Part shown: positions 3,641 through 58,400 of the stretch, one piece after another
Numbering within the stretch: the first letter of the stretch is position 1
Layout of the letters: each line of letters starts with the position of its first letter
Assembly: GCA_965178125.1 (NCBI GenBank)
Contig: OZ237738.1
Coordinates: 682,001-746,000 of the forward strand
Origin: Bilabrum cf. latius
Lineage: Eukaryota
Direction of reading: 5' to 3'
DNA: 64,000 nucleotides
Notes under the pieces: model-generated
What the model saw: the letters and a program-made list of their open reading frames with translations, nothing else
Databases searched by the model: none
What the model was told of the DNA's origin: nothing
Position numbers and translations under genes: made by a program

Positions 3641-6600
3641 TCAGTCGCGCAATACCTTGCCGTCACTGTCAATTTCAGCCTAAACGGGTAGCCCGAATGG
3701 TCGATCTTGACGCTATAGGCCGAGCAGGTCCAAAGCCTCATCCAGCACGATTGGATCGGCGTAAGATACCGAGATGCTTCTGTCAAAGTATACATGCTGG
3801 TCCTGCGGGCCACTGTGCCGAGCCATCCAGTGGATGTGACTGGCAATGCGGAGAACGTCTCCAACAGCACAAGACCAATCCCTGCCAAGCAAGCCAGCAA
3901 TGCCATCGATCTCATCCTAGTCGTCGCGACTGCCTACGCGCGGTCGCGAAACGGCAGATCTGGGCCTCGCAGAGACCAAGCTCCCTGGATCCGATCTAAG
4001 GATGACACCAAGGTCACGAAGCGACCTAGCAGATGACCACGGTCCCAGCAATGGCATCTCGACGCGTTTCGAGAACTGGCGCAACACGCCAACACCACTC
4101 AGTAGCTCTGGTCGACTTGTGGTGGCCACGAGGAGGAACCGCCCTGCCCAGCCGGACTGACCTGCGGTGTTGTCCTGCATGCGCTTCTGACCAGCCCTGG
4201 TTGGCTGGTCGATCGACGCGAGGATCGTTGACACCGTATGCAGAGTCTGGTGGGCGGCCTGCACGGAGCCTCCACCCGCACTCACAAGCTCCAAGATCCT
4301 GTCCACGTCCTCTAGGAGCACAACAGATGCTTTGAGCCCCTCCGAGCTGGACACACTCGACATTGAGGTGGCCGGCGACGGGTCGGTCCGCCGTTTCGCC
4401 ATTGACACAATCTCGAGTAGTGCTTGGCTTCTCTGGCTCTGGGGCAACTCCAGCAGCTCGTCTGGAGTCACCACTCGAATTCTAGGTTCTTGCTTGTCTG
4501 GACTGCCCTTCCCATCCAATCGCTGTGCTACCGGTCCAGCGTGCCGCCTCCTGGCTCTGCGATCTTGGGGGGAGCCGCCCTCTGTCGCGAAGTAGTGCGC
4601 TAGCTCCGATGCGATCGCTGATTTTCCCGATCGGCGAGGCCCGTGTAGAAGCAGTGACACCCCTGCATACCCGCGCGGCTTGGGTGGTTGCCCCGAAACG
4701 TGTCCAGGCGCCAGCGTCATCTTGCGAGACCCGCCACCGGACAGAGTGTGGGTCAGGCGAGCGCCCGAGTGGTCCGGCTGCGGCTCGACGGGATGCACAC
4801 CCCACGATGACGCGACGAACTACGCGGCCTGAGCAAGCGCCCTTCTCACGGGCTTGGCTGCCAGCAGTCCGCCTGGTTGCATGTGCTTCTTGATTTCGTG
4901 CGGAGTCATCACACCACGCTCCGAACCGTCCGACTCCGTGCTGGCTTCGCGCTCGTGCTGCTGGCACTCCTCCCTCGAGTCTGCCACGGCAGCCTCAAAG
5001 TCAGACCGCGTGACAGTCAGACCACGTGTGGAGAGACCGGCCGGGGCACCGCCACCTGAGGCTGTCCTAGACGCCATGTCGATGACTCTGCGGAATGATC
5101 GTTCCATAGCTCGTCCCGATGCATCTCTCACGATGCCCGCTACGTCGGCGCCGCTGCAGCCCTCCGCGGCCCGTGCGATGGCACCCAGGTTCACGTCACT
5201 TGCCATCACACCTTGGGACTTCATTTTCTCCGTGTGCACCTCCAAGATGTCCCTGCGGCCCGCCTCGTCAGGGTACCCGATCCTGACGTGCACTTCGAAG
5301 CGGCCCGGTCGAAGCAGCGCTGGGTCAATTACGTCCTTGCGGTTGGTCAGCCCAAGCACTAGCACGTTGTCTTGCTCCGACAGCCCGTCCATCTTGGCCA
5401 GTATCTGATCAACTACGCCGTCATAGAGATGCTGGGCTGGGCTGTTCTCCTCCCCAGCACCTGACCGCCTGGTGCACAGCGCGTCCATCTCGTCGATGAT
5501 GATCACGTGAAGGCCAGACGCCTCCCCTTTGGCCGCCCACTCCTGCTCAGCAGGGGCAAACAGGGCGCGCACATTGCCTTCAGACGCGCCAACATACTTG
5601 CTTAGTATCTCTGGCCCTGCCACGAAGCGCACCGAGCTGCTCTGCAGGTAGTCGGCCAGCCGCCTAGCAAGGAGCGTCTTCCCCACTCCGGGCGGGCCGT
5701 ACAGCAGCGCGCCCTTGACGTGGCTGGCACCCATCGCTCGCAGCGTGTGCCTCGGAATGGCCCTCGAAGCAAACAGCCTCCGGAAGAGCTCGCTGATTTC
5801 CTTGTCCAGACCCCCCACGCCGAGCTCGGACCGCGCGTCAAAGTCGAACGGGTTGAAGCGAAGCTCGTACGAGACCGCTCGCTCCAGCTTCAAATTGTGA
5901 ATTCGTTTCACGGGCATGCGTGGTTCAGTGCCTGCCGCCGCTCGCTGAGCCGATGTACCGCTGCTTGGGGCGCCCTATCCCGTGCTCCGCCCCCGAGCGA
6001 TGGTGCGATCATCCACAAAGTTGGCCCGCAGGTCGTTGCCCTCTCCGAAACCAGGAGGAATGGTGCACGTGAACGTGCCCGCCACAGACCGCTCGCAACC
6101 AGTGGCCTGCTGTCCCCCAATATGCAGAGAGGAGAGCCTCACGCCCAGGGAAAACTCACCGTGCAGCCGGATCTTTGCCCCTCCCCCGGTAGGACACCGC
6201 CTGATGTCGTCGACGAATCCGATCGGAGGCTGTGGCGGCTTGTTCTTGCGGTTGGCACTCTAACCATTCCCCGATTGCTGGCCAAGCTGCTGGCCAGAGT
6301 TGGGCTGCGTGCGAGCTCCCTGGGCTGCTCTCGGTCCTTGCTGCCCTAGGGGACCCCTAGGATCCTCTAGAGCACGCATCTGCCCGTCGTGCAGCGGCAC
6401 GTCACACCCTGAGATGCCCTTCAACGAAATAGGGGTATTCTGGAGATGGTGTGGCTGGGTGCTGCTCGCCTGCGCTGGCGGGGTCTGCCGGGCGCTGTGG
6501 TCGATGGCCCCGGCGGCTGGAGCGGACTACTTGCGAGAGCTCGATGATGTGGCTGCTGATGGAGGAGACCCAAGGGGAGCGTCTGTACCGGGCCCTCCGG

Positions 6601-7327
6601 CTTCAGAGGGAGTATTTCCTTTGGAAGGGGACTGGATCGGCGGCGGAGTGACTGCTGGGGAACCCTGCGGCGTTGCGCAAGCTGCAAACGCCGCCACTTG
6701 CACCCGGTACGTGCAGATGCCCTTATCAGTCCCCTCCCGAATCTGCATGAGCCGCGGCAGCGCTGCCGACCGATCGCAGTGCACTTCCAATGTGGTCTTT
6801 CGAAACTTTGCGGTGCCAGCTGTCGTTATGCCTTGGCATCGGGACCCGTCACGGTACTCCAGCGCAAATCCAGCACCGGGCTGGCCTGGGTCCAGCAGCC
6901 GTACGCCAAGGCTCTCGGGCGAAAATTGACCCCCAGCATCCACAAAATCGGCGATAGATACGCATGAACCAATGGCAGATGAATCAGAGGGGGTATGGGG
7001 CAAAGACTTGAGGAGAGTCTACTTCGGGGACTCCCCGACAGGGCGATTCTACTTGTCGACCTTGGGCGTGCGCAGGCACGAGATCGGTGCACAAATTCCG
7101 GTCCGAAATAGAGCCCCATTCTATCCTCCGACTCTACCAGTAAGGTAGCTGCCAAGAAGACCGTTCAAGAATGGAGCTTCGTGCCCCACGGCTGACAACA
7201 GTTGTCGGATCGACTCTCCACATCGCTTGGTCGAAAACTTCCACTGGTGCTCCGGCATTCGCCGATTTGCCAATGAAACACCCGAAAGAAGCAATAAAAA
7301 AATAGTCACAGACAGCGAATGCGCCAT
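3641..7327 (-). CDS. Signal peptide + MRH (mannose-6-phosphate receptor homology)-like + IPT/TIG-like + NSF/Sec18-like double AAA+ ATPase, ~1228 aa with TAG=Gln
   Basis: Track ORFs 7121..7438, 6527..7003, 4820..5917 and 3917..4798 share one frame, with only TAG (10 counted) from ATG 7327 (MAHSLSVTIFLLLLSGVSLA) to TGA 3641. D1 has GVGGLDKEISELFRRLFASR, GPPGVGKT, IIIDEMD, TNRKDVIDPALLRPGRFEV. D2 has GPRRSGKS and LLEDVD. MRH-like segment LEYRDGSRC..RKTTLEVHCD..REGTDKGICTYRVQV..AAC. Confidence 0.8.
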
Positions 7328-7625
7328 CACTGCGTATGCGCTCCCAGAGCGTTCAAATTGTGTTGCCACGACTTTCGCAATGATGGAGAGAAGCAATTCA
7401 GATGGATCGCACCGTGACCTGTTGCTGTGGTGTTGCAAGGCCGCACAAGGGTGATGATGTGGCTGCGGCAGTTGCGGTGCACTTTGTGTTATTGATCATG
7501 CTGCAAGTGCAGCCGTCCGCAGTTGGCATGTTTGATGGGCTAACCTGGAACGGCCTGCCCCAGGTGGGCCATTCCATGGGCAAAACCGCTAATTCAACAG
7601 CAAGGGCACATGTTCGAGGCCACAT

Positions 7626-12257: not shown

Positions 12258-12354
12258 GCAGCCACCAATGTTGGAATGTGCAACAGCCATATCGCCGCGC
12301 ATTTTGGTTCCGCTTTTCCCTACCGTTTGCAGAGCTTGCAATTCTCAGGTGACA

Positions 12355-13686: not shown

Positions 13687-16617
13687 TCATCCGCCATGCA
13701 GCAAGCTCGGCCGTGGAAAGGGCGACAGTGCCAGCCCGAGACTGGTTGAATTTGCGCTCCAGTCATCGAATGCCGCCCTGTGATACCCACTCCCGATGCC
13801 CACCCACCCAAGAGCGTATGTCGCGTCCTGCACCGCGGCCACCTGCACGCCATCCACCCAAGCAGTGATGGCATTCTTTTCTGTCTTGAGTCGCAGCGTA
13901 TGCCACGTCCCCACCCCGGAGTGACCAGCGGGAATGCTGCCCGATGCTAGCACAGTCTGCTATCCGAACGCTGCCTCTGTCGCTGCCCCGGCCCCAAGGA
14001 CCTGCGATCGATCTGCTCGAGACACAGGTGAACGTCTCGCTTCCCACTCCGCCTCAGACACACCGGCTGGCTTTGAAGTACCGACGCTGAGGATCCACGT
14101 ACCGTTCGATTGCAAAAAGAGCCAGTAGCCGTACTTGTACCAAGACGATGAGTATGCAGCGCATGCGGCGCTCGTACTGTTGCTCGCCGCAGCACCGCCG
14201 AGTCGCGCCCCCACTGCCACCATAGTCGCCTGCTCTTTCGCCCCGGGCGGCATCGCTGAAAGGCACATTGGCTGGCCCTGAGGCCCAGATTGGCCCATGG
14301 CTTGAAGCTGCCCCGAGCTGCCAACGCTTTGCCACACCTGCGTAGCTGGCGTGTGGTCGCCGCACGGCTGCATCGTCACATCGCTGGCTCCCTGCTGCGC
14401 GGCTTTCTTGTCGATACTGGCCGACAGGCACAGCCCCGACTGCATGCGAGTCTTGAGCTTAAATCCGCCAGTGGACTCCACCAGCACCTTGTCCCATCGT
14501 TGGTTGTTCGAGTCGCAGTTCGCGTCGGTTGTGTCAACGCACCCCCACATCCACGCCGGCGTGCCAGCAGATTGGTTGCAGCCAAGCACGTCCAAGCACT
14601 GCCTCGACGCTGCGTTGGCGATCGATCCGTTTAGAACTCCCGGAGGATCGAATACCCACTGCATGTCGCCTGGTACCGCGCCCGAAGGGCCTGGCTTGCT
14701 GCACGGACGCAGACTCAGCACGGGGTTGTCGTTGCTGCTGGTCCAGCTTGCCTCTTCAAGTACGGCCGCCCTTGCTGACACGTCCGAATCAGATATGTCG
14801 AATCGCCCCCCAATTGACAGGGCAAACACCGGATCGTCGCCATGGAAGTGCCAGGTGCTGGGTGGAGCAGTGACGTTCTGAAGGTATGCCTAGCCATGCG
14901 CCCCTGCAATGCCATCAGTGGCCGCAAAAGTACCCGATTGGTCGGAGAAGTACTTGGCCATGCGCTGCTCTGGGGTGCTCTCAAAGTCCTCCGTCCAAGA
15001 AGGTGGAAACACCGTGGCGTTGGCAGGGGGCTGCTTGGGCACACCGTGGGTCTGCCCACTGTCACGAGAGGCGATCGTGTACTGGGAATCGGGCCGGATG
15101 CCCGTGATTGTAAATGTGCCTGCGAGCGATACTTGCACATCTGCCAGGCGCTCAAACCACGTGACCGGCTCGCCATCGCTCTGAAAAAACACCGACTTCC
15201 AGACCACGACGCTGCTTGGCCGTCGCATTCCCTGCCCCAAGGCGAACGTCACGTCCTGCGTGTCGGCCACCGGCCACGGGTTGCTCGGATTTTGCCGGAT
15301 ACAGCGGCTGTGGTCGAGCGTGGTAGTCTCTAGCACCACCACCCAATCCATGGGAGCGCCGCCTGGCCCTGTAGCGCGCGCAGCATCAGAGTCGTTGCGA
15401 CTGTCTTGGCGGTAGGCGTTGCCTTGACGAAGCCAGGCGAGCATGGCCTCCCGTTCGTGGGCGGCACCCCCGCGCTGACCCTCTGTGAGGCCGCCGGCTG
15501 CCTCGATCTGTCGCCGGAGATGGGGCGGTTCGACGAGCGTGACGAACGTTCCACCCCCCGGCAGCTCACCTGCGCCCATGCCTGGGTGCAGAAACCTGTA
15601 CCCAGGCTGCACGAACTGGCCCCAGTGTGCCATGGCCCAAAGCGGGCTCGTGTCGTAGTAGCTGCCTGACCACGGCTGGGCAGCCGCGATGAGCGAGTCA
15701 CCGTACCAGTGCAGCTGCTCGAGATAGCTGCTCGCGAGGTTCCACACTATCGTTGAGGTCATGTTGCCGTATAGGACATTCCAGTTCAGGATGCGGGCGA
15801 GACACGCCCCCCCTTGGGCGTCGAAGAACGTGCTGGAGTCCTCGCTGCTCCACAGTGGGGTGCCCGTTGACACAGCGAGCGGGGTTGAGTTGCTAGCGTG
15901 CGGGTAGTGCGCCCCAATGACCGCGGTGGCCTGCTTCATTTCCTGGTCTGCAAGGATCTGCTTCGCTACCGGGTCAAAATCGCCGAAGTTGTCGGACACC
16001 ACAACCTTCGTCTCGTTCAGACCGATCGCATCTAGCTGTCGCCGCAAGTCTTTCACGTAGTCCACAGTCCAAGGCATTTCGTTGTGGATGCCAGTGTAGT
16101 CACATGTGTACCCCCATTGCTCCTTCGCGCCCCTGCAAAATCGTGCTTGATACGAGATAGTTCGGTTGGTGAGTGGCGAAGTCAGGTATCCGGCTAGGTG
16201 TCCTGGAAATCCCCAGCTCAAAGTATAGCCAAGCATCGACGGATTTCTCTATAGCGCTGCTTTGACCACGTCTCCCTCATACCCCCGCTTGAACGATGCC
16301 TCGTCGTCTGTGTCTCCGGAAGAGTGCTCTATGCTGGGCTCGCTCCCGCACCCGCTGAAGCTGTCTCCCCCAACCTCTATCTTCAGGGTGTGCATAGACG
16401 CCCCAAATAGGGGTTTAAACAGAAGATCGTATGCGCTGCCAGCTGTTGACTCATCGTAGTCGATCAGCAGACGAGAGGTTGCGCCTCCTCCAGAAAGCGC
16501 CCCAACGCCATCGAATTTCCTTCCAAGCAATGCCCCATCCAACTTGATTACAGGAGCTGAGCTTGCAACGATTGACAATAAACAAGAGATAGCAGCCGGA
16601 GCTGCTGTAGAGAACAT
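13687..16617 (-). CDS. GALC: GH59 galactosylceramidase-like glycoside hydrolase with signal peptide and ricin-B lectin insert, 976 aa with 3 TAG=Gln
   Basis: FDGVGALSGGGATSRLLIDY, LKIEVGGD, GIHNE, IGAHYP, LWSSED, KYFSDQSGTF; QxW-type ricin repeats. Four track ORFs in one frame joined by TAG at 16249, 14890 and 13960; TGA stop. Confidence 0.92.
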
Positions 16618-16763
16618 ATCGGTGGGTTAATTGTGTGTGAATGTTGGCAAGACATTTCGCCCCTCCCAGTGGCTCGGTTCGGAAGGAACCACAAGCAGCG
16701 AACCTCCAAGTCGCACCACAAGAAACCACAGCATGGTGTCTAGGCATAAAGCTGAAAGCACAT

Positions 16764-29369: not shown

Positions 29370-30542
29370 ATGTGAGAGACAACATTCATTCAGCAGCATG
29401 TTGGTTTGAACGCCTACCAGCGAGCATCGACACTTTTTTGCTTTGAGACGCTACGGTTCAAGATCTTTGCAGCTGCAACTGCGCTTTCTATCTTGTCTCG
29501 CAGGCAAACCGTGTATAAGCTTGCAGTTCTTGCATGCGTCTCCGGCTTGTCTTTGGCGAAGAATCCTGATTGCACCTTTGCTGGCTAGAAGGGTGCTCTT
29601 CTAGGGAACGCAGCAAGAGAGAACGTCTGCATGCCGTACGCTGGTATCGGAACTGGATCGTACCGCCACGGCAGCACAGGGTCGGGGGAGTGGTGGAATG
29701 ACACCGTGGCAGAGGTTGCCATTGATCAGTGGCTACGAATCGGTGGACGCCGCATTGATACATCATTCACGTATGGAGACCAAGTAGGCATTGGCCGCGG
29801 GATGGTGAAGTCAGGCCTGCCGCGCGAACAAATTTTTGTGACTTCCAAGGTCGGCCCCGGGAACCCCCTCGGTTACAACGAGACATTGCAGCAGTTCGAT
29901 CAGGTGCTCGCCACGCTCGGCAACCTCTCCTACGTCGACCTCTTGCTCATCCATTGGCCCGATGGGGGCAGCAAGAGCACCGACCCGGCGTGCAGCGGCC
30001 CCAGCAGCAGCCCCAAGAAGTGCAGGCAGAGCACGTGGAGGGCACTGGAGGACATCTACACGGCGAAAGGCGCCCGGGCCATCGGAGTGAGCAATTTCGA
30101 GAAGCATCACGTGGAAGACGTGCTGGAGCTGGGCGGCCTCAAGCCGGCAGTGGACCAGGTCGAGTACCACCCTTACTTCCACGAGGACGACCTCGTGAGT
30201 TACGTGCAGTCCCAGGGGATCCAGTTCAACTCCTACGCTCCCTTCGGGGCCTACGATCACGCAGTGCCCGCGTTCCACTGGCCACACAGTCCGCTGGAGG
30301 ACCCCGTGGTGCAGGCGATCGCGAAGGATCACGGGGTGACCGGTGCAGAGGTGGTGCTCCAGTGGAACTACCAGCAGGGCATCGTCTGGAACCCGAGGAC
30401 TATGAGCTAGCAGCACATGCGCGAGAACTTGCTTGACAAGGAGTTCACTCTGTCTGGCGACCAGATGACCCAGATTGCCACAAAGGTGCAGGTCCCCTCC
30501 AACCACCCCAAGGTGTGTCCGAATCCGCAGGACATGCCGTAA
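29370..30542 (+). CDS. Aldo-keto reductase (AKR, 2,5-DKG reductase-like) with signal peptide; 5' structure uncertain
   Basis: IDTSFTYGDQ, REQIFVTSKV, YVDLLLIHWP, AIGVSNF, QVEYHPY. TAG at 30408 is followed by the conserved QHMRENL..FTLS segment and TAA 30540-30542. The upstream TAG at 29586 links to the hydrophobic leader KLAVLACVSGLSLA. Confidence 0.88.
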
Positions 30543-33410: not shown

Positions 33411-36219
33411 TCACGTCCGTTTCCCAGCACCTCGGCTCAGCCAATCCGCGAACCCCGCCTCCACAAGTGCCTTGGCCCTCCTGGCCTGCCCCCTCACGTA
33501 GGCCAGCTCCTGCCTCGCGTCCTAAAACAGGGCGTGCTGCTTCCTGTACGATGCCTGCGCAGCACGCAGGGCCTCGGCCGCGGCATCGCCCTCCTCGCCC
33601 TGGGCGGCCGACCGCAGCGCAGCCGCGGCCTCGTCCACCCGCTCCTTCTTCCGGTTTACCTCCGAAGCGAAGGCCTCGGCGCGGGCCTTCGCCTGCCGGA
33701 CCGTCTCGGCCGCCCGATCGAAACTCGCGACGGCGTCCCGACCGGCACCGGTCTTCCAGGCAGCGAGCTGCTCCGCTGGATCCGAAGAGGTTGACCCGGT
33801 CCCGGTGGTGCTCGGTGAGGCAGCGCCTGGCGGCTCCATGCCAAGCTCTTCCCCAGGTGGATTTGATGCTGCTACTCTGCCGGCCCCCGCCCCAGCCCCA
33901 GCCCCCGCCCCGGCCCCAGCATCCCCAGAGGTGGCCCGCCTGCCAGGCCTGCCGAGCGGCGAGCTGCTTCTGGAACTCTTGCCGCGGGTGTTTCCCCGAA
34001 GATCCATTGTTCCCTGAGAATCTATTGTTCCCTGGGTGGCCCGCTCCACTGTGGCCATGGAGCGGGCAGGAGAGCCCTCGCTCCCCCGCACTGGTGCTGG
34101 CCCACCGTCATGCGGTTGCCTTTGCCCTTGCCTTGATAACCGGTCCAGCAGCACGGCAATGCCAATGTGGAGCTCCCGGGCCGTCCGAAGCTGCCAGATG
34201 GCGGATCCACCGGCACCCGCGTCGTCCGCGTCGCCAGCGTCATCGCTGGGGTCGTCCCACCGAGCGAGCGCTTCCAGGACTGCGGAACCTTCCCGCGCGG
34301 CGCCGCGCATCTCGACCGCTCCGTGCATTGCGGAACCAGACTACCGCTCTGCTTGTTCCTCAAGTAGCCTGTCGACGACTTTGCCCACTTCACGCATTTG
34401 CTCCGATCGGGGAGGACCGTGTCTCACGCCCAGCCTCCCCGTCATCTCGTCGTGCAGCGCAAGCTCCTGCCGCAGCATCCGGACCTCGTCCTGTAGCCGA
34501 CGAACCTTCACGAACACCTGGGGGTCGACCGCGGTCCCCGCTCCGCCTCCGGACCCCCCTGCAAGTGTGACGTTCCGCGAGGGTCGGTTCCGCACCCGCA
34601 GCATCCGCGCGGCGAACCGCAGCGTGGCAGTGCTCTCGCTCGCGTGAGCACTCGAGGGCCACACGCATGCGACCAGCCTGGTGAGGCAGTTGCCTCCGAG
34701 CGAGTCTCGCAGGTACTGGGTGAGCACGCTCCGGCGGTACGGGATGTGACGAGTGTCCCCGGAGCCGCCCTTGCCACCCTGACGGCTGCCACCACGACCA
34801 CTGCCAGTTTTCCTGTCTTCATCTTCATCTCCAGCTGCTCCGCCCCGGCCTCTGTCCCCCAAAGCAAGCACAACCTGCTGCAGCGCACTCAGGCTCTTGT
34901 TGATGTGCGTGGCCTCCTCCAGGGTACGGCCCTCCGATCCTGTCTTGCTCACCCTCTCTGACCCGGCCAGGTCAACCAGGTGAAGCTTGGACGAAGTCAC
35001 CTCCTCCACCTCCACCTCGTCCTCTACCTCGCCGCCTTCAGCTCCACCAAGGTCTCCATCTTCTCCCACTCCTCTTCCTATTTCTCTATCCCTGTTGCCC
35101 CGGCCTCCGGAGCCAGGCCCCGCTGATCCTGCAGCCGCATGCACGCGCTTCTCCAACTTTTTCTTATTACTCCTCGCCTTTCGAAGGAGCGTTCTTGATC
35201 TTCTAAGGTGCAGCGTCACCACGCAGTGCGACCGTGTCGAGCGCTCGTTCAGCGAGTGCTCCGCAATGGCGCGCACCTGCTCTGCGCGAGCGAGCAGCTC
35301 AAGGGCTTCTTCCGCGCTGTGCAGGACGGGCTGGCGCAGACCGCGCACTTCCACACCTCCGCTGGGGCTTGACACGACCCGTAGCGCCCCAGACGCAGTC
35401 GGAGCACTTGCTCGGCCAAAGGCGAGCGCGGGTCCCTTCAGGCCCGCCCTTCTGCTCTCGGCAGCTGCAGAGGCTGCCGCTCGAGTCGGGATGAGCTCTT
35501 TGGCTTCGGGATGCATCGAGACAGCCTAAGATGCGCCCGTTGGTTGGGAGGGACCGGACGAAGGAGACGCAAACGTGCCAGCATCTCCCATGCCAGTGGC
35601 GGCTTGTTGCCGCTGCTGCTGCAGCATGGCAACGAGGGGGTCCGCGGACACCCGCTCGTCGAGGAGGTCCAGGAGCCTCTCGTTGTAGATTTCGAGGGCG
35701 GACACGCGAATTGCCCACGCAACACTTGTCACGCTGCTGTCTTCCAGCGGCGTGCTGCGCTCGTCCTGCGCTGCGTGTCGAAGCAGCCACTCGATGGATC
35801 TTGGCACCAGGCCGCGCCCCGAGTATCCGCCACCGGGGGAGCCTGTCATGGTATGCGTCTTACCCGCCCCCGTCTAACCGTAGCACATAATTGTTCCATT
35901 CTACCCGCGGACTGCACTTTGCAGCACGGGGATTGCAACGGCATCAAACACGGCTTGCTGGCTGCCGGCTTCATCCACGACAGCGCTGCAAGGAAGCTTG
36001 AGCTCGCTACCTCTCGCGTCAGACCCGCTCGTGGAATGAACAGTGACCGTCTGCGATAGGCTCTTGCCGGGCGCGTATCGATTTTGCCGGCAATGCTTGC
36101 TCAAACTAGGAACTGGTCGGCAACAGCGAAGGACGGCTTACCTTCGGTCCAGTGACAATTCTGGCATCTTTATCGATACTAGGCCTTAGGCGAACGCAAA
36201 CATCAACTGATTTCTTCAT
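33411..36219 (-). CDS. Kinesin-9 family (KIF6/KIF9-like) motor, intron 36051-36141, 5 TAG codons
   Basis: VCVRLRP; G*NGTIMCYG*TGAGKTHTM; LEIYNE; NERSTRSH; LVDLAGSER; INKSLSAL; HIPYR; TLRFAARM. KIF6/9-like C-terminal YRKQHALF*DARQELAY...FADW; TGA 33411. Confidence 0.92.
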
Positions 36220-45627: not shown

Positions 45628-45678
45628 AAATGGCAGGCGCAGCCGCGCGAATACCAGCCCACATGCAATACTAGCCAA

Positions 45679-48600
45679 ATGCTTTTGGCGTCCCTGCTGG
45701 CCTGCCCAGGGGCCCTGTCTTCGCTACTGGCCCAATTGATTAAAATACACACGTTACAATTGGGGGGTATCCTTTCCAGCGTCAGTGGCAAGGGACTTCC
45801 TTCCCCCCCATCGCGCAAGGCAGTACGCAGTTGCCTCCGATTTTTGTCGATCGGGGACTACCGTAAGGCCATGTCGCGGTTGGCTGCTAGGCCCCACGCT
45901 AGGGGCACGGCAGCCGAAATGCAGGCGAAGGTTTAGGGGAAGTTTCGCACCAAGCGGTCCCAGCCGATCCCCAGGTTCCGCTGGACACGCCCGGTGCGAA
46001 GAGGCCGACGAGGGGGAACTGGAGGAGACGCGCGCGAGCATGTGGTGGAGCTGTCGGGGGCTAGACTAGGGGAGGAGGTCTAGAAGGCCCTGCGACTCAA
46101 GGCGCCAGATGCTTTTGGTGTGACGAGAGAGGTGCTGAAAACCTTGCTGACCGGGGAGGGAGCAGATGTGAAGCGGCTTTATGACGACTTCCATGCCTTC
46201 TGCTAGTCCATGGTTGAGGGAGCCCTGCCGCCGTGCCTATTCGCGTGCCTGGGCCTGTTTCGAGGGGTCCCAATCCCGAAAGGGGAGGGGGGCTCGGAGT
46301 TCAGGGTCATCGCAATCCAGCCTCAGTGGCATACATTTGTGAGCCGAGCCCTTCGGCCCGAATTGCTGCCGAAGGTGTAGCGAGCTTGCGCCCCACACCA
46401 GATGGGGGCGGGGCTCAAGTGCGGGATGGACGGAGCCATTGCAACGATCCAGGCTCTTCTCAGCGCTAACCCTGAGTGGGTGGTCGCTGCGCTGGATGCC
46501 TCGGATGCATATGGCTCCATCCATCGGAAGGCGACCTTGCAAGCTTTGGCGTCGCTGTCCACCGGACTGGGCACTTACGTGCACCAGTGTCTGCAGCACG
46601 CAGTACATGGTGTTGTGTCTGGCGAGGATGGAACAGAGCTTGTGCAGAACCTGGAGGGGGTGCTGTAGGGGTCGCCATTGTCTCCAGCGCTGTTCTGCGC
46701 AGCCATTTAGGGCGCTCTGAAAGCGACAAAGATTGCCCACATGGATGTGTACCTAGTAGCGTACCTTGACGACGTGTTCCTGTTGGGGGAGCTAGATAAT
46801 GTCAGGGCAGCCATCGCCACGTTGGAGGGGAAGTTGGGGGACGTCGGCCTCTCCCTCAACTAGAAGAAAACGTCGTTCTTCTCCCCCTCCCGAGCCACCT
46901 ATTAGCGCCTGGTCCACCTATTGGCGCCAGACCAGGAGGATAGGCTCGAAGGAGTGGTCCACGAGCATGGGCTGAGGATCCTGGGCGTCCCGGTAGGGAC
47001 CGACGTCGGAGTGGCCGAACAGGTCTTGAAGGGACGCTTGGAAGAGACGGTGGTTCAGGCTTTTCGCCTGGCCTACCTGGACCCAATCAGTGCGCGCGCA
47101 CTGTTTGCCCGGTGCGTTGTGCCGGCGTGGACGCACGTGCACAGGAGCGGGTGCCTCTTGCCCGAGCTCAAGGACGGGGTGACACCCCATTTGCAGGAGG
47201 TGTAGGGAGCGTTTCTGGAGTTCCTGACAGGGATGCGTGTAAGCGCTCTCTCGCAGGCCCAGAGACTGGTGTTGGACGTGCTGGGTCCGCTATCCGTTGC
47301 CCGTGGGGGCCTCGGAGTGGGGCTCGTGCCTGCCGATTTAACCCGGGAGGCAATGTGCGTCGGGGGGTTGTTGGATGTGTGGCCCTGGTTGGCGAGGGTA
47401 GCACGCGACTTCAACCTGCCACACCTGCAGGTGGCGCTCAACCAGTGGGACCCGGCGGAGGAGGTCGGGGAAGGTGCGGCGGCAGGTGCCGGGGAGGCAC
47501 CCCCTCTGCTGAACCCACTGCGAGGGCGCACCGCGCGCCTGAACTCCCTTGTGGACACTGTGATGACCGCAATCTCGAAGTACGGGAGACTCGTACAAGA
47601 GGGGAAGCAAGACAATTTCGGGATGGCTGGTTTCCCGAGTCCGTTGCTTCCACTTGTTCCGGAGGCTGACGTCCCCCCACGCTATGGTATGGTGTGGGAC
47701 ACAGCCCGCACTTCGGAACTCCTGGGCAGCCCAGCCGAGAAGGCAGCCCGTATGGAGCTGTGCGGTGGGGCCACTGAACCCTGGCGCCTGGAGGTGAAGG
47801 ACCTTCGGGCATGGGTGACGAGGCAGCTGGCTGGGGAGCAGCCGGCACCCACCGCATCGCAGGCGGTTATTCGTTTTCTCGAAGGTGCCGCAGGAGGGCA
47901 CAACCAGAGCCATGTGACGGCACTGGCTGAGCGAGTGCAGGTGGAGAGGCTCCTCTGGGATGCCTCATCTCCGCTTGCGCACGACAGACTCGCTCCAGTC
48001 GATGCAGTCACCAGAGAGTACGCAGGAGTGGCGCGAGCCACAATCCGCGCCGCCAGGTCCCAAGGAGCCGGGTCTTGGCTGCATGCGCCGCTCTCTGTCC
48101 TAAGCCGAGTCCAGCCTGAAGATGCCCGGGGCATGTTCTGCCAGCGTCTCGCCATCCCACAGCCGTGCAGCTGTCCCCCACAACCTCTTGGGGCAACGCA
48201 CGGTGCATGTGGGGAGGCGTGGCGTGTCACGCAGATCTGCCCGGGGTGCCGGAAGCAGGGCAAGGTAGTCGAACTGATCTAGTCAGTTCGCCACGGTGCC
48301 ACGTGCAAGGACAAGCGTGTCTGCGGAGGCCTTCCAGGCCGCAGGCACTTCCGGGTGCTCAACGTGCTCGAGCAGGTGGTCCGCGAGGCCACGGGCAGAC
48401 GCCCTATCCGGGAGCCAGAGGGCCAAGTGGCCCGGCTGCCGGGTCGGCGCGGTCCGCTCGTGCCACGAGGCGACCTATTCTTTGAGCACGAGGGGACGGC
48501 TTATCTCATCGATGTCACGGTGGTTGATTCCACTGCGGCAACTTACCGGTGGGACCGCTCGTCGTGGAGGATTGGCAGCGACTGGCAAGAGGGGTCTGCT

Positions 48601-49290
48601 CTGCGGGCCGCGCATGCCACGAAGCTGGCCAGCTACGGCAGGCCCGTCGACCTCGGAGCGCTCGGCGTCCGGATCGGAGGAGAAGACAAGTGGTGTCCTG
48701 GGACCGTGAGGACGCAGAAAGGGGCGGTACGCAGTGGCGTGCGGGTCGTACCCTTTGTGGTGGACGTGTTGGGGGGGATCGGGGAGAAGTCGGTCGAGTT
48801 CCTGTAGGTGCTCGATAAGCTGCGGAAGAAGAGGCAGGAGGACAAAGGGCGGCGGGTTCCGACTCGTCCGGCCAACGCGCGCCTCTCGTGGTCTTCCGTG
48901 GCAAAGGCTCGCCTCTCCGTTGCCGCCTAGCACCAGCACGTGCGCGGGGAACAGCGTGTGTACCACACTATGTACTCAAGGGTCATGCAGGACCACTCAA
49001 GGATCCTCGATTTTGTCTCGAAGGGATCGAGGAGGGCTGCAGCGAAGGCCAAACGGGCGCTCGCAAGGGCGATCCGAGAGGACTTTGCCAGCCTGGCTGT
49101 AGGGGCAGCCGAAAACAACAACCTCGCCGTGGCGATCGCCAACGTCAAGGCAGGGTTGGCTCAGAACGGGCAGCAGGACGGGGTGCCGGCAGCGGGCGCC
49201 GGAGGGAACGTGAATGCTGACGCTCCCCATGGGGAAATGGGTCCCCAGGGTGGAGCTTAGGTGGCTTAGGCCATTGCAGCTGAAGCGTGA
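45679..49290 (+). mobile_element. Non-LTR retrotransposon-type ORF (CRE/SLACS-like, RT + Cys/His knuckle + restriction-like endonuclease), ~1203 aa, uninterrupted under TAG=Gln
   Basis: RT motifs IPKGEGGSEFRVIA, PHQMGAGLKCG, ALDASDAYGSIHR, GVL*GSPLSPALF, AYLDD (46759-46773), GLSLN*KKT, LRILGVPVG, RGGLG. RLE motifs GAGSWL, C..C/H..C, RRH, RGDL...IDVTVV, KLASY, PFVVDVLGGIG. 14 in-frame TAGs, no TAA/TGA or frameshift until TGA 49288. Confidence 0.9.
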
Positions 49291-49656: not shown

Positions 49657-52600
49657 ATGGCATCTGCTAACGGCGCTGGGGGGGCGTCTGCAGCCAGTGG
49701 TGCAATCGCAACGGCGAGCCCCAGCGTCGCTCCAGGCCAGCAATCGCAGCAAATGAACCAGTAGCAGCAGCAGCAGTAGCAGCAGCAGTATATGCAGGTG
49801 AGTTTCGTAAGATGTGGCACGATCCGCGGACGCTGCGGTCCAATCCGTGCACCGTTTGCTTTTACACCCTGCCAAATCCTTCGCAGATGCAACAGCAAAT
49901 GCTGGCCTAGCAGTAGTACTAGATGCATGCTGGGTACCAGGCTGCAATGCAACAACAAATGATGTTGATGCAGATGCAGATGCAAGCTCAAGTATAGGCC
50001 GCTGCGAGCGCTGCGGCGGCTGCAGCAACAGCGGCCGCTCACCAAGCCTCTGCGCGGGCCTCCGCCCGATCCTCGATACGGGAAGGGCTGGCCTCTACAT
50101 CTTCAAGATCATAGAGAGGAAGAGATAGCAGCATAGACAGGCAGCTCCCCGCGCAGTACGCGCAGCACCCGCTGGCCCAAGGCCTGGCCCAATCGAGTGC
50201 AACGCACCGCGGTAGGGCACCTCACGACGCCGACAGGTTCAGCGTGGTGTCTGCTCGGAGCGGTCGTAGCTCTGTTGCCTACCGCTCCAGACGATCTCCG
50301 CAACCATGGGCGAGGTCCCGCCGCGGCTCGCGCGCCGTTGGCGCTTCTGATCGCGCCTCGGTCGCGAGCGGCAGGAGCACCAGCAGGGCGCGGAGCAGGA
50401 CGCGGGGTCATGTCCCGGGCCCGGGTGCGCACTCCAGGAGGCAGTCTTCTTCCAGGGTGAAGGGGCTGAAGCCGGGCAGGGGAAAGGAGGGCGGCAGGCC
50501 GCGGTCCAGGGGCGGCCGCAGCGTGGCGTCGTCGGCCAGCCATGGGCAGGGCCGGAGCGGGGGCTGGTAGCCGAGGCGCGGCTCACAGACAGCAACAGGT
50601 GAGGGTCACGGACACGGGGGGATTGGAGGGGCAGGGCAGTACCAGTACCAGTACCAGAACTAGCACTAGGGGATGGGGATGGGAATGGGAAGTGGTTCGG
50701 GCTTGTCCTCGCCACCAGGTACGTCACACGGGTTGCCCATCGGCAGGGGACTCGGGGAGCACAGCGTGGGGCCCAGGCTCGTCCAGGGCCGGTTGCAACC
50801 GCTTGGCAGCCCTGGGGGGCTGCAGCCCAGTGCCTCCACACCGAACCTCGACGAAGGTTCTCTCATGTCCCAAGGGTCCTCCACCCGGCCGCCGCTGTCG
50901 CCTGCAAAGCCGCAGCGGTCCAACCGCTCGGATCAAGTTGGATCATAGGGAGGTGGCTATTTCCCTTCGCCAGGGAACAACGGAAGGGGTACCCGCAGCC
51001 GCAGTGGGAGTACCACACCCGGATCTGGAGCTGGGGCTCGAGAGGTCCTGAGCACTCGTCACAGCGCGTCCACGCCCGCGCTCCCTATGCGTCAGCAGAC
51101 CGGAATGCCGGGGCCTGCTGCGGCGTGGTAGCACTAGCAACACCATGCGATGCAGCAAGGCGGTCCGGCCGGGGGACGGCCCTACGCCGTTGCGTCAGTG
51201 CCGGTGTCTCCGGCTGCGGCGGACAGAGCGGTAGGAGGCGCTGGTCGAGGCCGAGGTCGAGGCCCTGTTTCCAGCGGTGGTGGAGCTGGAGGGGGGCGGC
51301 GGATACGGCAGTCTGCGCCATCTCCGACGGGTAGCGCGAGAACGTTCGCCGTGGACGGGCGAACTTCGCTCTGGGGGGGGAGGAAGAGCGGTCGAGGGCG
51401 GGGCGACCCGGCGGTGGCTCCCCCCAGCGGGGGCATGCGGCACTCGCCCGTCCCTGCCGGTTTGGACAGGCCGAGGGGCCGTCGCAGCCACGTGAGGCGA
51501 GAAGGAGACAGCCGGTCTCCGGCTCCCCTTCACCCTGCAAACGGAGATGCCCTGCCCGACCGCGCCTACGCCGACGGGCCAGGCAATGCGGGTGTGGGCG
51601 TAGTTCCAGCACACACGCCAGGCAGCCCGGGAGCCTCCTCCGTGTACACGGGGGTGGGCAGCGTGGCGTCATCCGTGCGATCGGGAGCCCCGGGCTCGGG
51701 CAGTAGGCACGTGGTCACGCATGCGGGCCGCCGGGCCTCAGGAACGGGAACACTGCCGTCGTCGTCTAGCGTGCTGGGTGGCGGCGCGGCCGGGGCTGCA
51801 GGTGACGGGGCCTCCACCGCTCGAGGCGGGGGCCCCGGCAGCGTCGCCACGGCTCCCATCGGGTACGGCTCGGCTGCAGCAGAGGCCAGGCAGGCGGCGC
51901 GAGCTGCACGCAGGTAGGCCATTGAGTCGCTTCGGCGGCGCGAGGCCAAGGAGGCGCAGATGGCCGGCGGCATCATGCAGTACCGGCAGCAGCAGTTGCA
52001 GGAAAGGAGGGTACGGCTACACTCGGCAAGCACGGACCGGTCCGCCACCACGGAGGTGCCTGCGGCCAGCGCTACCAGACCTTTCCAGCAGCAGGGGGGC
52101 CAGCAGCAGCAGTAGCAGCACCAGCACCAGCAGCAGCACCAGCACCGGCAGCACTAGGGGGTTGAGAGCGCGGGAAGGCGGGACTAGGTCCAGGCCAGCG
52201 AGCTTGTATCGATCGCACCGGTCCTCAAAAAGCCACCGTCGGCTCCAGCCGGGGCTCAGGGACAGCAGCAGCAGCAGCAGCAGCAGCAGTAGCAGTAGCA
52301 GTAGCAGTAGCAGTAGCAGTAGCAGTAGCAGTAGCAGTAGCAGTAGCAGTAGCAGTAGCAGTAGCAGAAGATGCGAGGCCGCAGCGGCCGCGGCGGAGGT
52401 CCGCTAGCTCTGGACCCTGACGGCCCCGGCGATCCCGACGACGTGCCAATGGACGACACGACCCGCCGCATGCTGGACGAGTCGGCCAAGCTGATTCGAA
52501 AGACTCGGAAAGGGTCTCCGTCGTCGTTCTCGCGACAGGGGTCTGCTAGCGGTCGATCGAGCCGGAACAAGTCCACCGGGTCGGGCCGTCACGCGCCTGG

Positions 52601-54992
52601 GGGAGGAAGCAGCGGGCCAGGCACAGGCGCGAGAGGCTAGGGGCGGAGCAGGAGCAGCTCCTATTCCCTGCCTACAGGCGTGGCTGGCACGCGGAGCACG
52701 TCTGGCGCCTCCTCTCCCGACACGGTCATGAAGAAGACGCTCCCGGAGAAGACGCGGCGCGCGGCGAGACATGAGGTGAGGCATGGGTCGAGCCTCGATG
52801 CGCGAACCGACGCGGCTAGCCAGGGATCGGGCTCAGGCTCGAGGTCGAGGTCGAGGTCGCGCGGCGGGCCCGAGATGGAAACCAAGGGCGAGTCAGAGGA
52901 AGGTGAAGAGGAAGGGTACGAGGACGAGGACAACTCGAACGGCTAGGGGCCTGGCAGACGCGGCCTGGGCAGTGGGGCTGGGTTGCCCTCAGCGGGGTAC
53001 AGGCAGGGCGCATCGCAAACCAGGGCTTCGGATAAGTTCCACAGGCAGGTGCAGCGGAATGCAAGGCTAGGGCGCGGCGCACCGACTGAGGTGGTGGGCT
53101 AGCACGGTATCGGCGTGGGGCCGGTGACTCTCAGCCCCAACGCCTTCAGGGGAGAGGTGCCCATGTCCAGGGAACAAGCCCGGGCGGAGGGCATTGACGG
53201 GCACAGCATCCACAGGTTCAAGGGTTCGGAGCAGCATCAGGCCACAGCAGAGCGGGTGGACCGGGCACCAGACGACCCGGCGGCGTCTGCAGGTGAGAGG
53301 CAGAGGCAGGCTCGTCTGCGGCAGTCCAGGGCCAAGGCACGAGGCGGGGCGCCCGACCTGGTGGAGACGAGGTTGTCTGGCATGCAGGCGGACCAGTCCC
53401 TGTGGGAGAACGAGCTTGCCAAGGCTTCCCTCGCCCTGTACAGGGCGCAGACGACCGCGGTTGCGGAGGATGGGGTGCTGGCTGCAGACGATGGGCTGGG
53501 TCAGAAGACCAGGACGAGAGGCAGCGTGGGTCGAGGCAAGGGCCTCGTCGGAGGAATGCGAGGCACGAGGGCTGCGGGGATGATGCCCGGCCCGCGGTCT
53601 GGATCCGCGTCTGCCATGGAGCTTGCGTCGGCCTTTGCTGGGCCAGACGATGCGTCCGCCGGGATCCGCGGCCTGGCTCGGGCCTCGGCCGCTCGATCCG
53701 CGGCAGCCGGCGGCGGCGCGTCGTCGACGGGTCCATGGGCGGCAGAGGAAGACGGGAGGTCCGTGGCGTCTGTAAACTCGACGAGGTCAGCCATGCTACC
53801 TCGGGGAACAAGTCGGAGCCTCTCCGGGGCCGTTGCCGCAGGCGCTGCGGGCGTGAGAAGCAGGGGTGGTTCTACAGCCGGCGGCGACAGTAGTGCTGGC
53901 GGGGCTGGCAGTGCTCGCGTGATGGGCGGCGGTATCGGCAGTATGCGGGGCCCCGGCCGCCAAGCCGCAGCGACTGGTGCGGAGGCGGTGAGGCTCAAAG
54001 GCTCAGCCCCAAACCTGATATGGTACGGCGGGGGAGGGGGGAGCGTTACGGCTCGAGCGGACTGGACGGGGGTAGGTCCTCAGGCAGCACTGGATCGCGA
54101 GCAGCAGGCAAAAGAGGCGCTGCGTGCCGCGCCTCCGGGTGCGGCGCCGCAGCCCGTGTCCACCATGCCGGAAGGACACGACAAGGATGCTGGTCTGCGG
54201 TCTCATTTGGCGGGACTGGAGCGCAAGGGCCAGTACGTCAAGTACGTGTCTCTGCTGGTTTCGTACATGTAGCCAAGGTTGCGGGCGCAAGACCGCAGCG
54301 AGAAGGAGAAGCGGCAGTGGAGGCAGCTTGTGGTGGCCACGAACGTCTTTGCAGTCAAGTACACTGAGGCGGAGAAGCATGCCCGGGCGCTGGACATGCT
54401 CCGCAAGGCCCTCGAGCTCGTGCAAAGCGACGATGGGATGCCACCGCACACCAAGCGGGAGCTTTCAGGCTTCGTGCACGACTCGTACGCGCTGTACTAC
54501 TTCAGGAGGAGCAAGCTGTCTGCCGCGCTCCAGAGCTCCCACAAGGCCACGAAAGCGCACGCTTCGGTGAGGCAGTGGGACCACGTTGCCAAGTGCCACC
54601 TGCACACCGCGGCCATCCTCAGCCGGCTGGGCAAGCACGGGGAAGCTGTGCGATGCATGGGCCAAGTGCTGCAGCTGGTCGACGAGGAGCGCCTGGAGGC
54701 GGGCGGCGCATCTGCAGAAAAGCTCTGCCTGCTTTCGGTGGCGTACCACAACATCGCTGTCGAGCACATTCTGCTTGGCCAGGGCGAGGACGCTTGCCTG
54801 GCCTCACAGAACTGCAGGAGGCTGGCGCGCCTGTGCCTGAGCTACTCCAACCGGTACATGCGCCACTTTGAAGCTACACATGCAGCCGCTCTGGCCCAGC
54901 TGCAGCGATCGCGCGAAGCCAGGTCGCTTACGATGAACGACCCCCTGCACAGGAAGGTCTTCCGCAACTTGAGCGCCGCGCTTTACTCGTGA
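49657..54992 (+). CDS. Large Gln/Gly/Ser-rich protein with C-terminal TPR-like helical domain (intron 49798-49886)
   Basis: ATG 49657, a GTGAGT...CGCAG intron, then one frame to TGA 54990-54992 interrupted only by TAG. The C-terminus has HLHTAAILSRLGKHGEA and LSVAYHNIAVEH (TPR-like). Confidence 0.8.
52263..52367 (+). repeat. (CAG)9(TAG CAG)13 in-frame microsatellite = 35 Gln under TAG=Gln
   Basis: Read directly from the sequence; in frame with flanking ORFs 51150..51917 and 52371..52640. Confidence 0.9.
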
Positions 54993-55474: not shown

Positions 55475-58400
55475 ATGGTGGCCTTCAGGGCGATTGGGCT
55501 TGCATTCGTGATCTCTGTGGCTGGCTTGGCCTCCGCCGGCTGCCCAAACGACTGCAGCTCGCGAGGACAATGCGTGAACAACGCCCAATGCCAATGTTTT
55601 GATGGGTTTACTGGCGTTGATTGCTCGCAGCGTGAGATGGTGCAGCCCTGTGCTCAAATGCGATCTGGAGCGTCGTGCTTTGAACGACTACCTCGTTGAC
55701 AGGCCCCCCTCATCGTTTCATGTCGCAGGCACGTGCGCCAAAGGCGAAGTTTGGGTGTCACGACCTGACACTGAAGGAGTTCTCCATGGAAGCATGGAGG
55801 AATGCAGCAACCGTGGCACCTGTGACCGATCCACCGGTCTCTGCGAGTGCCTGCCGGGCTACGAGGGCCTCGCTTGCTAGCGCAGTGAGCTTGCCCGCAC
55901 ACTACCTCCGCATTGCTCCCATTATTGGTTCTTATTAGGTTGTGTTGCGGAAAGTTCGGCGGATATAGTTTGGGAGCATCGTTCCTGAGGACGCTGCCCT
56001 TTAGCATGCTGTTGCCTCCTCGTCTTGCTGCTTTCGCCATTCTTTATTGCTTTAGCACCGTCAATCACAATTGCTTCACTCATTGCGCAGCTTCGTGTCC
56101 GGCGGACTGCAATGACAATGGTGTGTGCTCCACCATCGAGCAGATCGGTGATCATCTCGCCTCCGGCTCCACGGATCCCTCCACTGGGGTGCAAGACTTC
56201 GGTGTTGAGTACACCAACTGGGACAAAGAGAGCTCTGCTGGGTGCGTCTGTGACTTTGGGAGGTTCGGACCGGACTGCTCCCTGACCATGTGCCCAAGGG
56301 CCGACAACCCCTCCACTGACGTGCAGCACGACTACACGTTCGTCTTTTCCGTGGGCGCCAACGGAACCAATGGGGGTGCAGACTCTCTCACGGGAGAGTT
56401 CGGACTATTCTTTGCTGGGCAGCAAGCCACGCTTCCTTTCCCTGCTCAAAACGCCTCCGAGGTGCTTTGCGAGCTCTCCTTCGAGAGCCTCCCCAACGTC
56501 GAAGACGTTGACTGTGTCAGGACGACGTCTAATTTTACCGCGGGAGCGCACTCGTTCGTCGTGCGAGTCAAAGAATTCTCTGCTTTTGATGGCAACAAGC
56601 AGAACAACCTGTGGAACCACGACGGCAAACCGCCGCTGTCCTACTTCGCGTGCTCGCTGGGGAGCGCCAACTCCACTGGCTTCGGGGAGCCGGAGTGCTC
56701 GTTCTTCGAGTTCGACCGGAACATCGAGACGGAGTTCAACAACACCTTCTTCGGAATTGTGGACACCTAGTACACGATCGAGGTGTTCGACGACCAGGTG
56801 AGGCCCAACACTTACCGGTTCAGGACATAGATCAGCAACTGGTCGGAACCCCTCCCCATGAACGCCTCGTTTCACCCAGACATGGGTCTGGATGACGACG
56901 GCGTTGTCATCAAGTTCAACTCGATCGTTGGACATACTAAAGGAACGCGGTGGACCATCAGCGCCAGGGCAAGTACTGGAGACATCGACGAGCCCCGGCT
57001 GGCTAGCGATGCTCGAGAGTTCGACATGTGCGCCGGGAACGGCATCTGCGACACATCAACGGGCCTCTGCAGCTGCTTCGACGGATACGAGGGGGCAGAC
57101 TGCGCAACGGAGCGGTTTTTGTCGAATGCAACCGAGAATCTGCCGGGCAGCTGGGTCAGGGCCTCGAGCCCAACCTACCTTGGAGACGTGCTTCGTCTCA
57201 CAACCGAGAAGGGCCCACGGGATGACTTCAATCTGCTCTACGCGCAAAGTGGAAACAAGACCCAGTTCTTTGTGAGGGGTGATGGATTCATGTTCGTTGA
57301 GGACCTTTTCGTGAACAGCATCCTTCGGCTTCGGGAAGGTGAGTTCCAGGCACTCCGCATTACTGGGGACGGCCTCACCATCGAGCAAGGCGGCCTTGTG
57401 ATCGACCTAGATGGCGCCACCATCCACGACGGTGGTCTAGCTATCAATGACGACGGTGCTCTCATTCAAACAAACGGCAATGAGCACGCCCTTCACGTCG
57501 TGAGTCGCGCAACTAGCGGATACACGTCGACGGTGCTGCAGGTGTCATCGGAGCAGCCCCGTGGCGACACATTTAGGCTGGCCGAGCTGGACACTGACGG
57601 CGATGTGGTTTTTACCGTGTCCGGCAACGGTCAAGTTCGCTCTGAGCACGGAGGTGTGTGGATTGACGAAGTCGGTCTGCACGTCGAGTCAGGTGGCGGC
57701 ACGATCGTCGATGGCGGACTGTTTGTGCAGAACCGCGAGCCGAATGATCCGGTGCTGCACGTCAGCATGGATGATCCAGACTTCAACAGCGTTGGTATCA
57801 ACATCACTTCCGACGAGCTTGCATCTTTCTCGAACTACTTCTTCTTTCAGGCCGTCAACACGGATGGTTAGATTCATTCTATTCGTGGGGACGGCCTCAC
57901 GACCATCTCCCGTGGCGGTTTGCTGATTGAGAGCGGCGGTGCTACCATGGTCGGAGGCGTGTTCATTGAAGACGGTCTCACTATTACTACAGGCGGCGTG
58001 CACGTCGAGGACGGCGATGTTAACATTCAGAATGGAGCACTCAATGTCCGCGAGAATGGAGCCATCATCACGTCGGAATTGCAGAGCGTCTCGCCCTTGG
58101 TTTTACGGGCCACAGACAACAACTTCGATGAGACAATCTTCAATGCTCAGACCACGCGGGATCCTTCAGACGAATACAACATGTACCGGTACGAAACTGC
58201 AACCGAGACAATGTCCCTTTTCTCCGGCGACGGCTTTAAGCAGGAGACGGTTTTGAGCAATGACAACCGTGCTTTGTACCACTTGAGGCGCGCCCGCGAT
58301 TCGGGCGGTAGCCCTAGCGCTGTGAGCGACGGAGAAATATTGCGTCACATCGAATTTCAGGGGTACGGTGGAACTGACTACCAGCCCTCGGCAGGAATCC

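Follow-up and report, generated by a model that had tools for sequence, protein, structure and literature searches.

In the genome from which this DNA was taken, nuclear UAG is almost certainly a third glutamine codon, with UAA and UGA as the stops, which is formally NCBI translation table 15. The window, by which we mean the whole 64-kb stretch that was analysed (G000:C4:682001-746000), belongs to an assembly of 48.6 Mb in 111 contigs (G000). The evidence comes from the KIF9 gene in the window, from kinesins, dyneins, Ras-family proteins and the release factor eRF1 across the assembly, from a tRNA gene with anticodon CUA and from integrated virophages.

TAG codons in KIF9 and in conserved protein families

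The earlier note on this DNA had read two in-frame TAG codons on the minus strand and had placed one of them at the P-loop Gln of a kinesin. Both (35903-35901 and 35876-35874) lie in one shared frame, and the letters are exactly as given there. Translated with TAG as X, the frame has its closest PDB relative in KIF9 (9ijj, E 2.3e-54), in which the motif is GYNGTIMCYGQTGAGKT; TAG 35874-35876 stands opposite the P-loop Gln and TAG 35901-35903 opposite Tyr. The top PDB matches are KIF9 (E 2e-54 and 2e-52) and the next family follows at 1e-43, a ranking by PDB comparison and not by a tree. The motor domain is closest to KIF9 and has the P-loop, switch I and switch II, and the alignment to the Pfam Kinesin family that had been proposed as a check gave a match with E 2.7e-76. 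The gene is an intact KIF9-type kinesin (Kinesin-9). That the rest of the motor domain is intact, as had also been claimed, holds for these motifs, but the domain carries long low-complexity insertions and aligns in four separate stretches. The frame runs from 36050 down to its TGA (33411-33413) and has 879 codons with five TAG, no TAA and no other TGA (Table 1). The gene most likely starts at the ATG at 36219, followed by a 91-nt intron, and additional in-frame introns within the main exon are possible. The TAG at 35901 does fall on the variable G(Y/F)N position recognized earlier, and it is the sole site of the finding without a Gln consensus. A predicted tryptic peptide of KIF9, GQNGTIMCYGQTGAGK, covers this TAG and the one at the P-loop.

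Table 1. KIF9 gene and other TAG-containing frames in the window (positions of the window)
Feature	Positions	Strand	Basis
KIF9 exon 1, 26 codons from ATG (36219)	36142..36219	-	inferred; GTAAG donor at 36141
KIF9 91-nt intron, GTAAG...CGCAG	36051..36141	-	inferred from frame and likeness to three eRF1 introns
KIF9 main exon, 879 codons, five TAG, TGA end	33411..36050	-	reading frame
TAG at G(Y/F)NG position	35901..35903	-	Tyr in KIF9; 14 Tyr and 6 Phe in paralogs
TAG at P-loop Gln of KIF9 (YG-Q-TGAGKT)	35874..35876	-	PDB and paralog alignment
Third in-frame TAG of KIF9, inside an insertion	35526..35528	-	reading frame
Fourth in-frame TAG of KIF9	34341..34343	-	reading frame
Fifth in-frame TAG of KIF9	33522..33524	-	reading frame
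AAA ATPase frame, 1284 codons, 10 TAG	3641..7495	-	
GH59 galactocerebrosidase-like frame, 979 codons, 3 TAG	13687..16626	-	
Aldo-keto reductase frame, 2 TAG	29376..30542	+	
Reverse-transcriptase element frame (non-LTR-type), 1220 codons, 14 TAG	45628..49290	+	
1773-codon frame, 32 TAG, contains poly-Gln run	49671..54992	+	
Poly-Gln run, 35 codons: nine CAG, then alternating TAG/CAG (13 TAG)	52263..52367	+	

Reading through TAG opened long, almost tiling frames of 858-1,773 codons across the window, and Pfam families were found in 14 of the 25 such frames tested. When TAA or TGA was read through instead, no comparable long tiling frames appeared in the window, and TAA and TGA were rejected as sense codons on this ground. 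The window also contains two long tandem-repeat proteins, one Lys/Ser/Pro-rich with 27 TAG at 7626-12344 (minus strand), the other an EGF-domain, Ser/Gly/Ala/Val-rich protein at 55889-64000 (plus strand) that extends beyond the window. The non-LTR-type reverse transcriptase frame lies directly after a HAT1-like gene.

A single gene with five stops, like KIF9, could reflect nonsense mutations in a pseudogene or assembly errors. The 31 kinesin motor segments of the set (the window's own and the 30 best of 95 matches) comprise 10,425 codons, which include 34 TAG, 1 TGA and no TAA. TAG occupies the position of the P-loop Gln in six of the 31, and 17 others have Gln there; at kinesin columns at least 60% conserved, 9/9 TAG are opposite Gln. 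Stops within matches are almost only TAG, and they include those of the essential single-copy eRF1 gene and of all 19 dynein frames. An independent metagenome contig, L099, has the same usage. It matches the eRF1 of this genome with 82% nucleotide and 93% amino acid identity over 236 codons, has TAG opposite CAG at one site, and ends in TGA where the eRF1 gene here ends in TAA; it is the only close relative among 80 metagenome eRF1 loci. The code thus appears to be common to this relative, on one site, yet one that is independent of this assembly. With the kinesin, dynein and L099 data, pseudogenes or assembly errors are vanishingly improbable, and this explanation was discarded.

The 19 dynein heavy-chain frames (57,918 codons; 2,070-3,332 each) contain 262 TAG, 2,082 CAG and 366 CAA. 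The TAG codons were scored against 150 outside dyneins, and 149 sites had enough aligned homologs. The summed log-odds at these sites were +109.9 nats for Gln, -70.1 for Glu and -85.2 for Lys. As a control, the same method gave the standard meaning for 61/61 sense codons. At the 23 TAG columns that are at least 70% conserved, the residue was Gln in 17, Glu in five, Val in one and Tyr in none, and the residue profile of TAG correlated with that of CAG at 0.97 and with that of TAC at -0.34. The reading of TAG 35874-35876 as Gln, made earlier at one P-loop, is thus borne out genome-wide in kinesins and dyneins. That UAG instead means Tyr or Glu could draw on the tRNA with anticodon CUA, whose body is nearest to that of tRNA-Tyr and whose anticodon loop is 6/7 like that of tRNA-Glu(CUC), and on the KIF9 TAG opposite Tyr; it is extremely improbable in view of the absence of Tyr from the conserved dynein columns, the lead of Gln over Glu by 180 nats and the alternation of CAG and TAG in the poly-Gln run.

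Glu was commoner at conserved TAG than at conserved CAG columns (5/23 vs 10/286, P 0.003); against CAA columns the comparison gave 5/23 vs 3/29 (P 0.44), and three of the five Glu-facing sites are one single column. The fitted Tyr admixture at TAG was 0.035 (95% CI 0.004-0.067) and that of Glu 0.089, with 0.017 and 0.102 for the CAA control. Since the control is similar for both residues, TAG behaves as a rare Gln codon. Among the individual dyneins (L179-L197), TAG is used more often the lower the GC3, in parallel to CAA, the extremes being L181 (GC3 0.90, one TAG) and L190 (GC3 0.54, 43 TAG).

Termination, eRF1 and the tRNA with anticodon CUA

Homology fixed 34 gene ends, of which 26 are TGA, eight TAA and none TAG. 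They are the ends of 13 dyneins with a C-terminal GVA/GTA motif (10 TGA, 3 TAA), of 20 of the 30 Ras-family loci, in which TGA (16) or TAA (4) comes after a terminal Cys prenylation motif, and of the eRF1 gene (TAA). The count omits six of the 19 dynein frames (five open at the fetched edge and one broken by a probable intron) and the 10 Ras loci lacking the Cys motif; the omitted loci are uninformative because the read-through construction excludes TAG ends. The kinesin, dynein and Ras data show that UAA is not a Gln codon, the meaning it has in table 6. Coding scores in 35 coding-like frames were 0.231 before and 0.205 after TAG (n=127), 0.197 before and 0.203 after CAA, and negative after TAA or TGA.

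UAG could be mostly Gln and still be leaky or dual, either because it terminates a number of genes close to the end of the mRNA, as the reassigned codon does in the context-dependent codes of Condylostoma and Blastocrithidia, where it also becomes scarce towards gene ends, or because the Tyr-like tRNA receives Tyr (or Glu) in part. Within the final 30 codons of the 35 frames there is one TAG where about 3-4 are expected, which could be mild depletion but is within chance and of low power. The tRNA with anticodon CUA has retained C1:G72 and its body resembles that of Tyr, the core residues of eRF1 are unaltered, and the Tyr mixing weight given above is just over zero; next to the CAA control, however, TAG behaves as a rare Gln codon. 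The absence of TAG from all 34 defined ends has a P of 0.0005 if TAG ended 20% of genes and of 0.03 if it ended 10%, so that these ends are compatible with TAG as terminator in about 10% of genes or less, with the 10% share weakly disfavoured. Overall, we consider a leaky or dual UAG improbable, and UAG as an ordinary Gln codon remains the preferred reading.

The eRF1 gene, on contig C35, has four exons, three introns and two in-frame TAG, one of them opposite a Gln kept in 89/94 homologs. In human numbering the protein carries G29A, N30D, S60V (TAVNIKS), L69Q, F117P, N129S and K130H. The same residue occurs in no homolog for N30D (0/87), F117P (0/95) and K130H (0/95), and in few for S60V (1/95), N129S (4/95) and L69Q (6/95), while T32, S33, E55, T58, S70, Y125, C127 and F131 are unchanged. 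By these comparisons the N domain, which reads the stop codons, differs from that of nearly all homologs. L69 and N129 have been tied to the third-position G, and N30A is neutral in yeast (PMC4381064). An environmental eRF1 clade near Cafeteria was also found (P0124, P0126, P0127 and P0128, one entry being labelled Symbiodinium), and L69Q together with N129S is present in those of its members that cover the two sites. The altered eRF1 would no longer terminate well at UAG. We propose a loss of UAG recognition tentatively, because T32 is intact, N129S and L69Q also occur in the environmental group and N30A is neutral.

A tRNA gene with anticodon CUA lies at G000:C23:907607-907679. It matches the Rfam tRNA family with 69.8 bits, the second-best such match (63 of 780 genome candidates were scored), and folds into a cloverleaf. 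DNA and pattern searches of the genome found this one gene, none of the 13 other CTCTA-pattern matches in the genome being a tRNA. There are one ordinary Gln tRNA gene with anticodon UUG and two with CUG, and a DNA search of the genome found no further Gln(CUG)-like copy. Pattern searches, which also missed both Gln(CUG) genes, found no tRNA with anticodon UUA. A tRNA-Trp was not located in the genome, as 12/12 Trp-pattern matches were not tRNAs. The CUA anticodon can pair with UAG and not with UAA, and a eukaryote-type GlnRS, which is present in the genome (G000:C33, L207), would charge the tRNA with Gln. A GluRS lies on C15 (L208).

Each part of the tRNA(CUA) was checked against the corresponding part of 21 further tRNAs from this genome, tRNA-Trp not among them. 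Overall likeness was greatest to tRNA-Tyr(GUA) (50 vs 43 for the next). The acceptor stem agrees with that of tRNA-Tyr(GUA) at 12/14 positions (next best 6/14) and the anticodon stem at 8/10, and both tRNAs have a 5-nt variable loop and C1:G72. In contrast to these Tyr-like stems, the D-arm is 14/16 identical to those of Gln(UUG) and of Glu(CUC), and position 73 has the G of Gln(UUG) in place of the A of Tyr. In E. coli, an amber tRNA-Tyr with a mutation at position 73 is known to insert Gln. A73 and C1-G72 are eukaryotic Tyr determinants, and bacterial Gln determinants include G73, G2-C71, G10 and U35, the eukaryotic Gln row of that compilation being blank (PMC9976931); amber tRNAs from fMet and Trp were charged with Gln (PMC9976931). 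Given the Tyr-like stems, the Gln-like D-arm and G73, and these determinants, a Tyr origin with a switch of identity is the best reading. The tRNA would have arisen from tRNA-Tyr(GUA) through G34C, a change of the Tyr determinant A73 to G and acquisition of a D-arm of the Gln type. We regard this derivation, and not one from tRNA-Gln(CUG), as reasonably likely.

Other observations on tRNA genes were made. A 40-nt copy of the tRNA-Tyr 3' half (L239:1343-1382) lies about 160 bases upstream of an intact, intron-less tRNA-Tyr. The usual eukaryotic tRNA-Ile has the anticodon AAU edited to IAU; nuclear tRNA-Ile genes with anticodon GAU were found here at L016:1501-1573 and L088:4993-5065.

Integrated virophages and known variant codes

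Five tRNA-Met loci lie inside inserts of 36-38% GC, whose frames are open only when TAG is read through. A 52-kb low-GC block on contig C3 (G000:C3:1089800-1141800; L200, L084, L201-L203, L091, L204) holds a capsid gene with nine TAG that matches the mavirus MCP (6g45, E 3.6e-32), together with two rve integrases, methylases and helicases; it seems to consist of several adjacent elements. A virophage major capsid protein, an rve integrase and a low-GC insert, the marks of a mavirus-like endogenous virophage, are thus all present. The packaging ATPase candidate has weak Pfam matches, and the penton and cysteine protease candidates of the inserts have no Pfam match. A viral sequence collection was searched with the virophage integrase, the virophage capsid protein and the tRNA(CUA), and none of the three had a match there. 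The mavirus-like inserts are multi-copy (L080, L092 and L093 among them) and carry tRNA-Met(CAU), one also tRNA-Pro; they also encode an RNA ligase, a C5 methylase and a Tet/JBP-like oxygenase.

In four inserts, 63 of the 69 frames of at least 150 codons contain TAG (copies and some shadow frames included), and the frames end in TAA (47) or TGA (22). Among the 1,185 Gln codons of the four inserts, 279 are TAG, vs 262 of 2,710 in the host dyneins. When virophage copies were compared, Gln was the commonest residue opposite TAG, in 19/120 at 30-85% identity and 1/5 at 85% identity or more, a weak comparison. From these frames, the integrated virophages share the UAG = Gln code of the host, and their heavy TAG use looks like adaptation to that code and not like decay. 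TAG usage of this kind in AT-rich virophage genes also speaks against a standard code with TAG in the DNA and U-to-C editing or splicing of the mRNA. TAG is a common ending of 3' splice acceptors, but hundreds of TAG lie in continuous conserved frames, a cognate tRNA gene exists and TAG is avoided as a terminator. A Gln meaning of UAG is one simple explanation for the sites, the tRNA, the terminator avoidance and the virophages, and we consider editing or splicing very improbable.

To our knowledge, UAA and UAG are nearly always reassigned jointly, and the few known exceptions are based on transcriptomes or incomplete assemblies. A long-contig genome gives codon usage, tRNA, synthetase and release factor together, so that the source of UAG-reading tRNAs, and how eRF1 drops UAG yet keeps UAA and UGA, become directly testable here. 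UAG alone means Gln in Iotanema and in the ciliates Protocruzia, Hartmannula and Trochilia, and the account of these codes in PMC11687900 names no stramenopile; the same source has UAG as Leu (a rhizarian and three ciliate MAGs) and as Ser (Scotinosphaera). Iotanema spirale (Fornicata) likewise has UAG = Gln, UAA as stop and an altered eRF1 N domain, but belongs to another supergroup and has T32G, whereas here T32 is intact and its neighbours are changed (PMC5304391). Its tRNA was predicted only, as there was no genome, and derived from tRNA-Gln(CUG) (PMC5304391), whereas the tRNA(CUA) here is nearest to tRNA-Tyr; if true, a tRNA-Tyr origin contradicts that standing prediction.

The ciliates Hartmannula sinica, Trochilia petrani and Protocruzia tuzeti likewise reassign only UAG to Gln, and a dual UAG meaning was not seen in the phyllopharyngeans (PMC11687900). 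In the UAG-only ciliates UAA ends 86.9-98.3% of genes (PMC11687900), whereas TGA is the main stop here (26/34) in a genome of about 60% GC. Neither H. sinica nor T. petrani yielded a suppressor tRNA (PMC11687900), but one is present here. In the UAR = Gln codes of ciliates, ulvophytes, Hexamita, Streblomastix and Amoeboaphelidium, stops likewise became Gln, but both UAA and UAG changed (PMC11687900), whereas UAA is still a stop here. The present case extends the code change to a GC-rich genome with TGA as main stop, outside the lineages of the cited reports. The codon table of table 15 is identical to that of this genome, but its label names Blepharisma nuclei and some phages, not stramenopiles.

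Cafeteria burkhardae (roenbergensis) has a genome of 34-36 Mb with 70% GC (PMC6972860), compared to 48.6 Mb and about 60% here, and the sole non-standard code named in that description is mitochondrial. The EMALE virophages of Cafeteria are likewise low-GC endogenous mavirus-like elements with an rve integrase, and the terms 'genetic code' and 'tRNA' are absent from the main text that describes them (PMC8547959). In the literature searched, which included few subscription papers and no supplements, we found no report of a nuclear reassignment in stramenopiles, bicosoecids or Cafeteria, nor of a recoded virophage; it is possible, if rather unlikely, that a prior report of such a code change exists. 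The codon table itself is known, and the novelty lies in the lineage, in a decoding tRNA that resembles tRNA-Tyr and in recoded virophages. Jointly, a first nuclear code change in stramenopiles, a tRNA-Tyr to Gln switch and virophages (and, presumably, their giant viruses) in the host code are proposed tentatively, with slightly more doubt than confidence.

The recoded virophages are a case of a eukaryote DNA virus following the code of its host and, if true, the variant code would wall off this host-virus system from standard-code relatives. An eRF1 that ignores UAG only is of interest for genetic-code expansion. Standard gene calling truncates the genes of this organism, as in the database entry identical to its eRF1, a 225-aa fragment, and the lineage is therefore probably hidden in metagenomes.

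Host, mitochondrion and assembly

TAG-containing genes are found on each of contigs C12, C23 and C35, so the code, the tRNA and the eRF1 belong to one organism. The best named eRF1 match is Cafeteria roenbergensis (69%), and the named CHD and dynein matches are mostly oomycetes and some animals. A cox1 search gave 120 matches, the two nearest at 94% and 89%. In a quick eRF1 tree, this genome, L099 and P0121 form a long-branched clade (support 100), which falls together with Cafeteria in a weakly supported group (84% SH-aLRT, long branches). From these matches the host is very likely a stramenopile, and likely a bicosoecid near Cafeteria, the latter placement coming from a one-gene tree with weak support. 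The tandem 18S genes on C12 (1,700 nt) have what we take to be a bicosoecid look.

The mitochondrial genome (C111, 38.4 kb; L096-L098, L206) uses UGA for Trp, as is also the case in Cafeteria and Cafileria (PMC6972860, PMC6723347). In its first 30 kb, all complete frames of at least 120 codons end in TAA. ARAGORN found 10 tRNA genes in it, with none for Thr, Ala, Gly, Leu, Ser and others. A second, different 18S of 1,802 nt (L001, L094-L095), presumably dinoflagellate-like, is on a small low-complexity contig of 17.9 kb (G000:C95) and probably comes from a co-occurring organism in the assembly.
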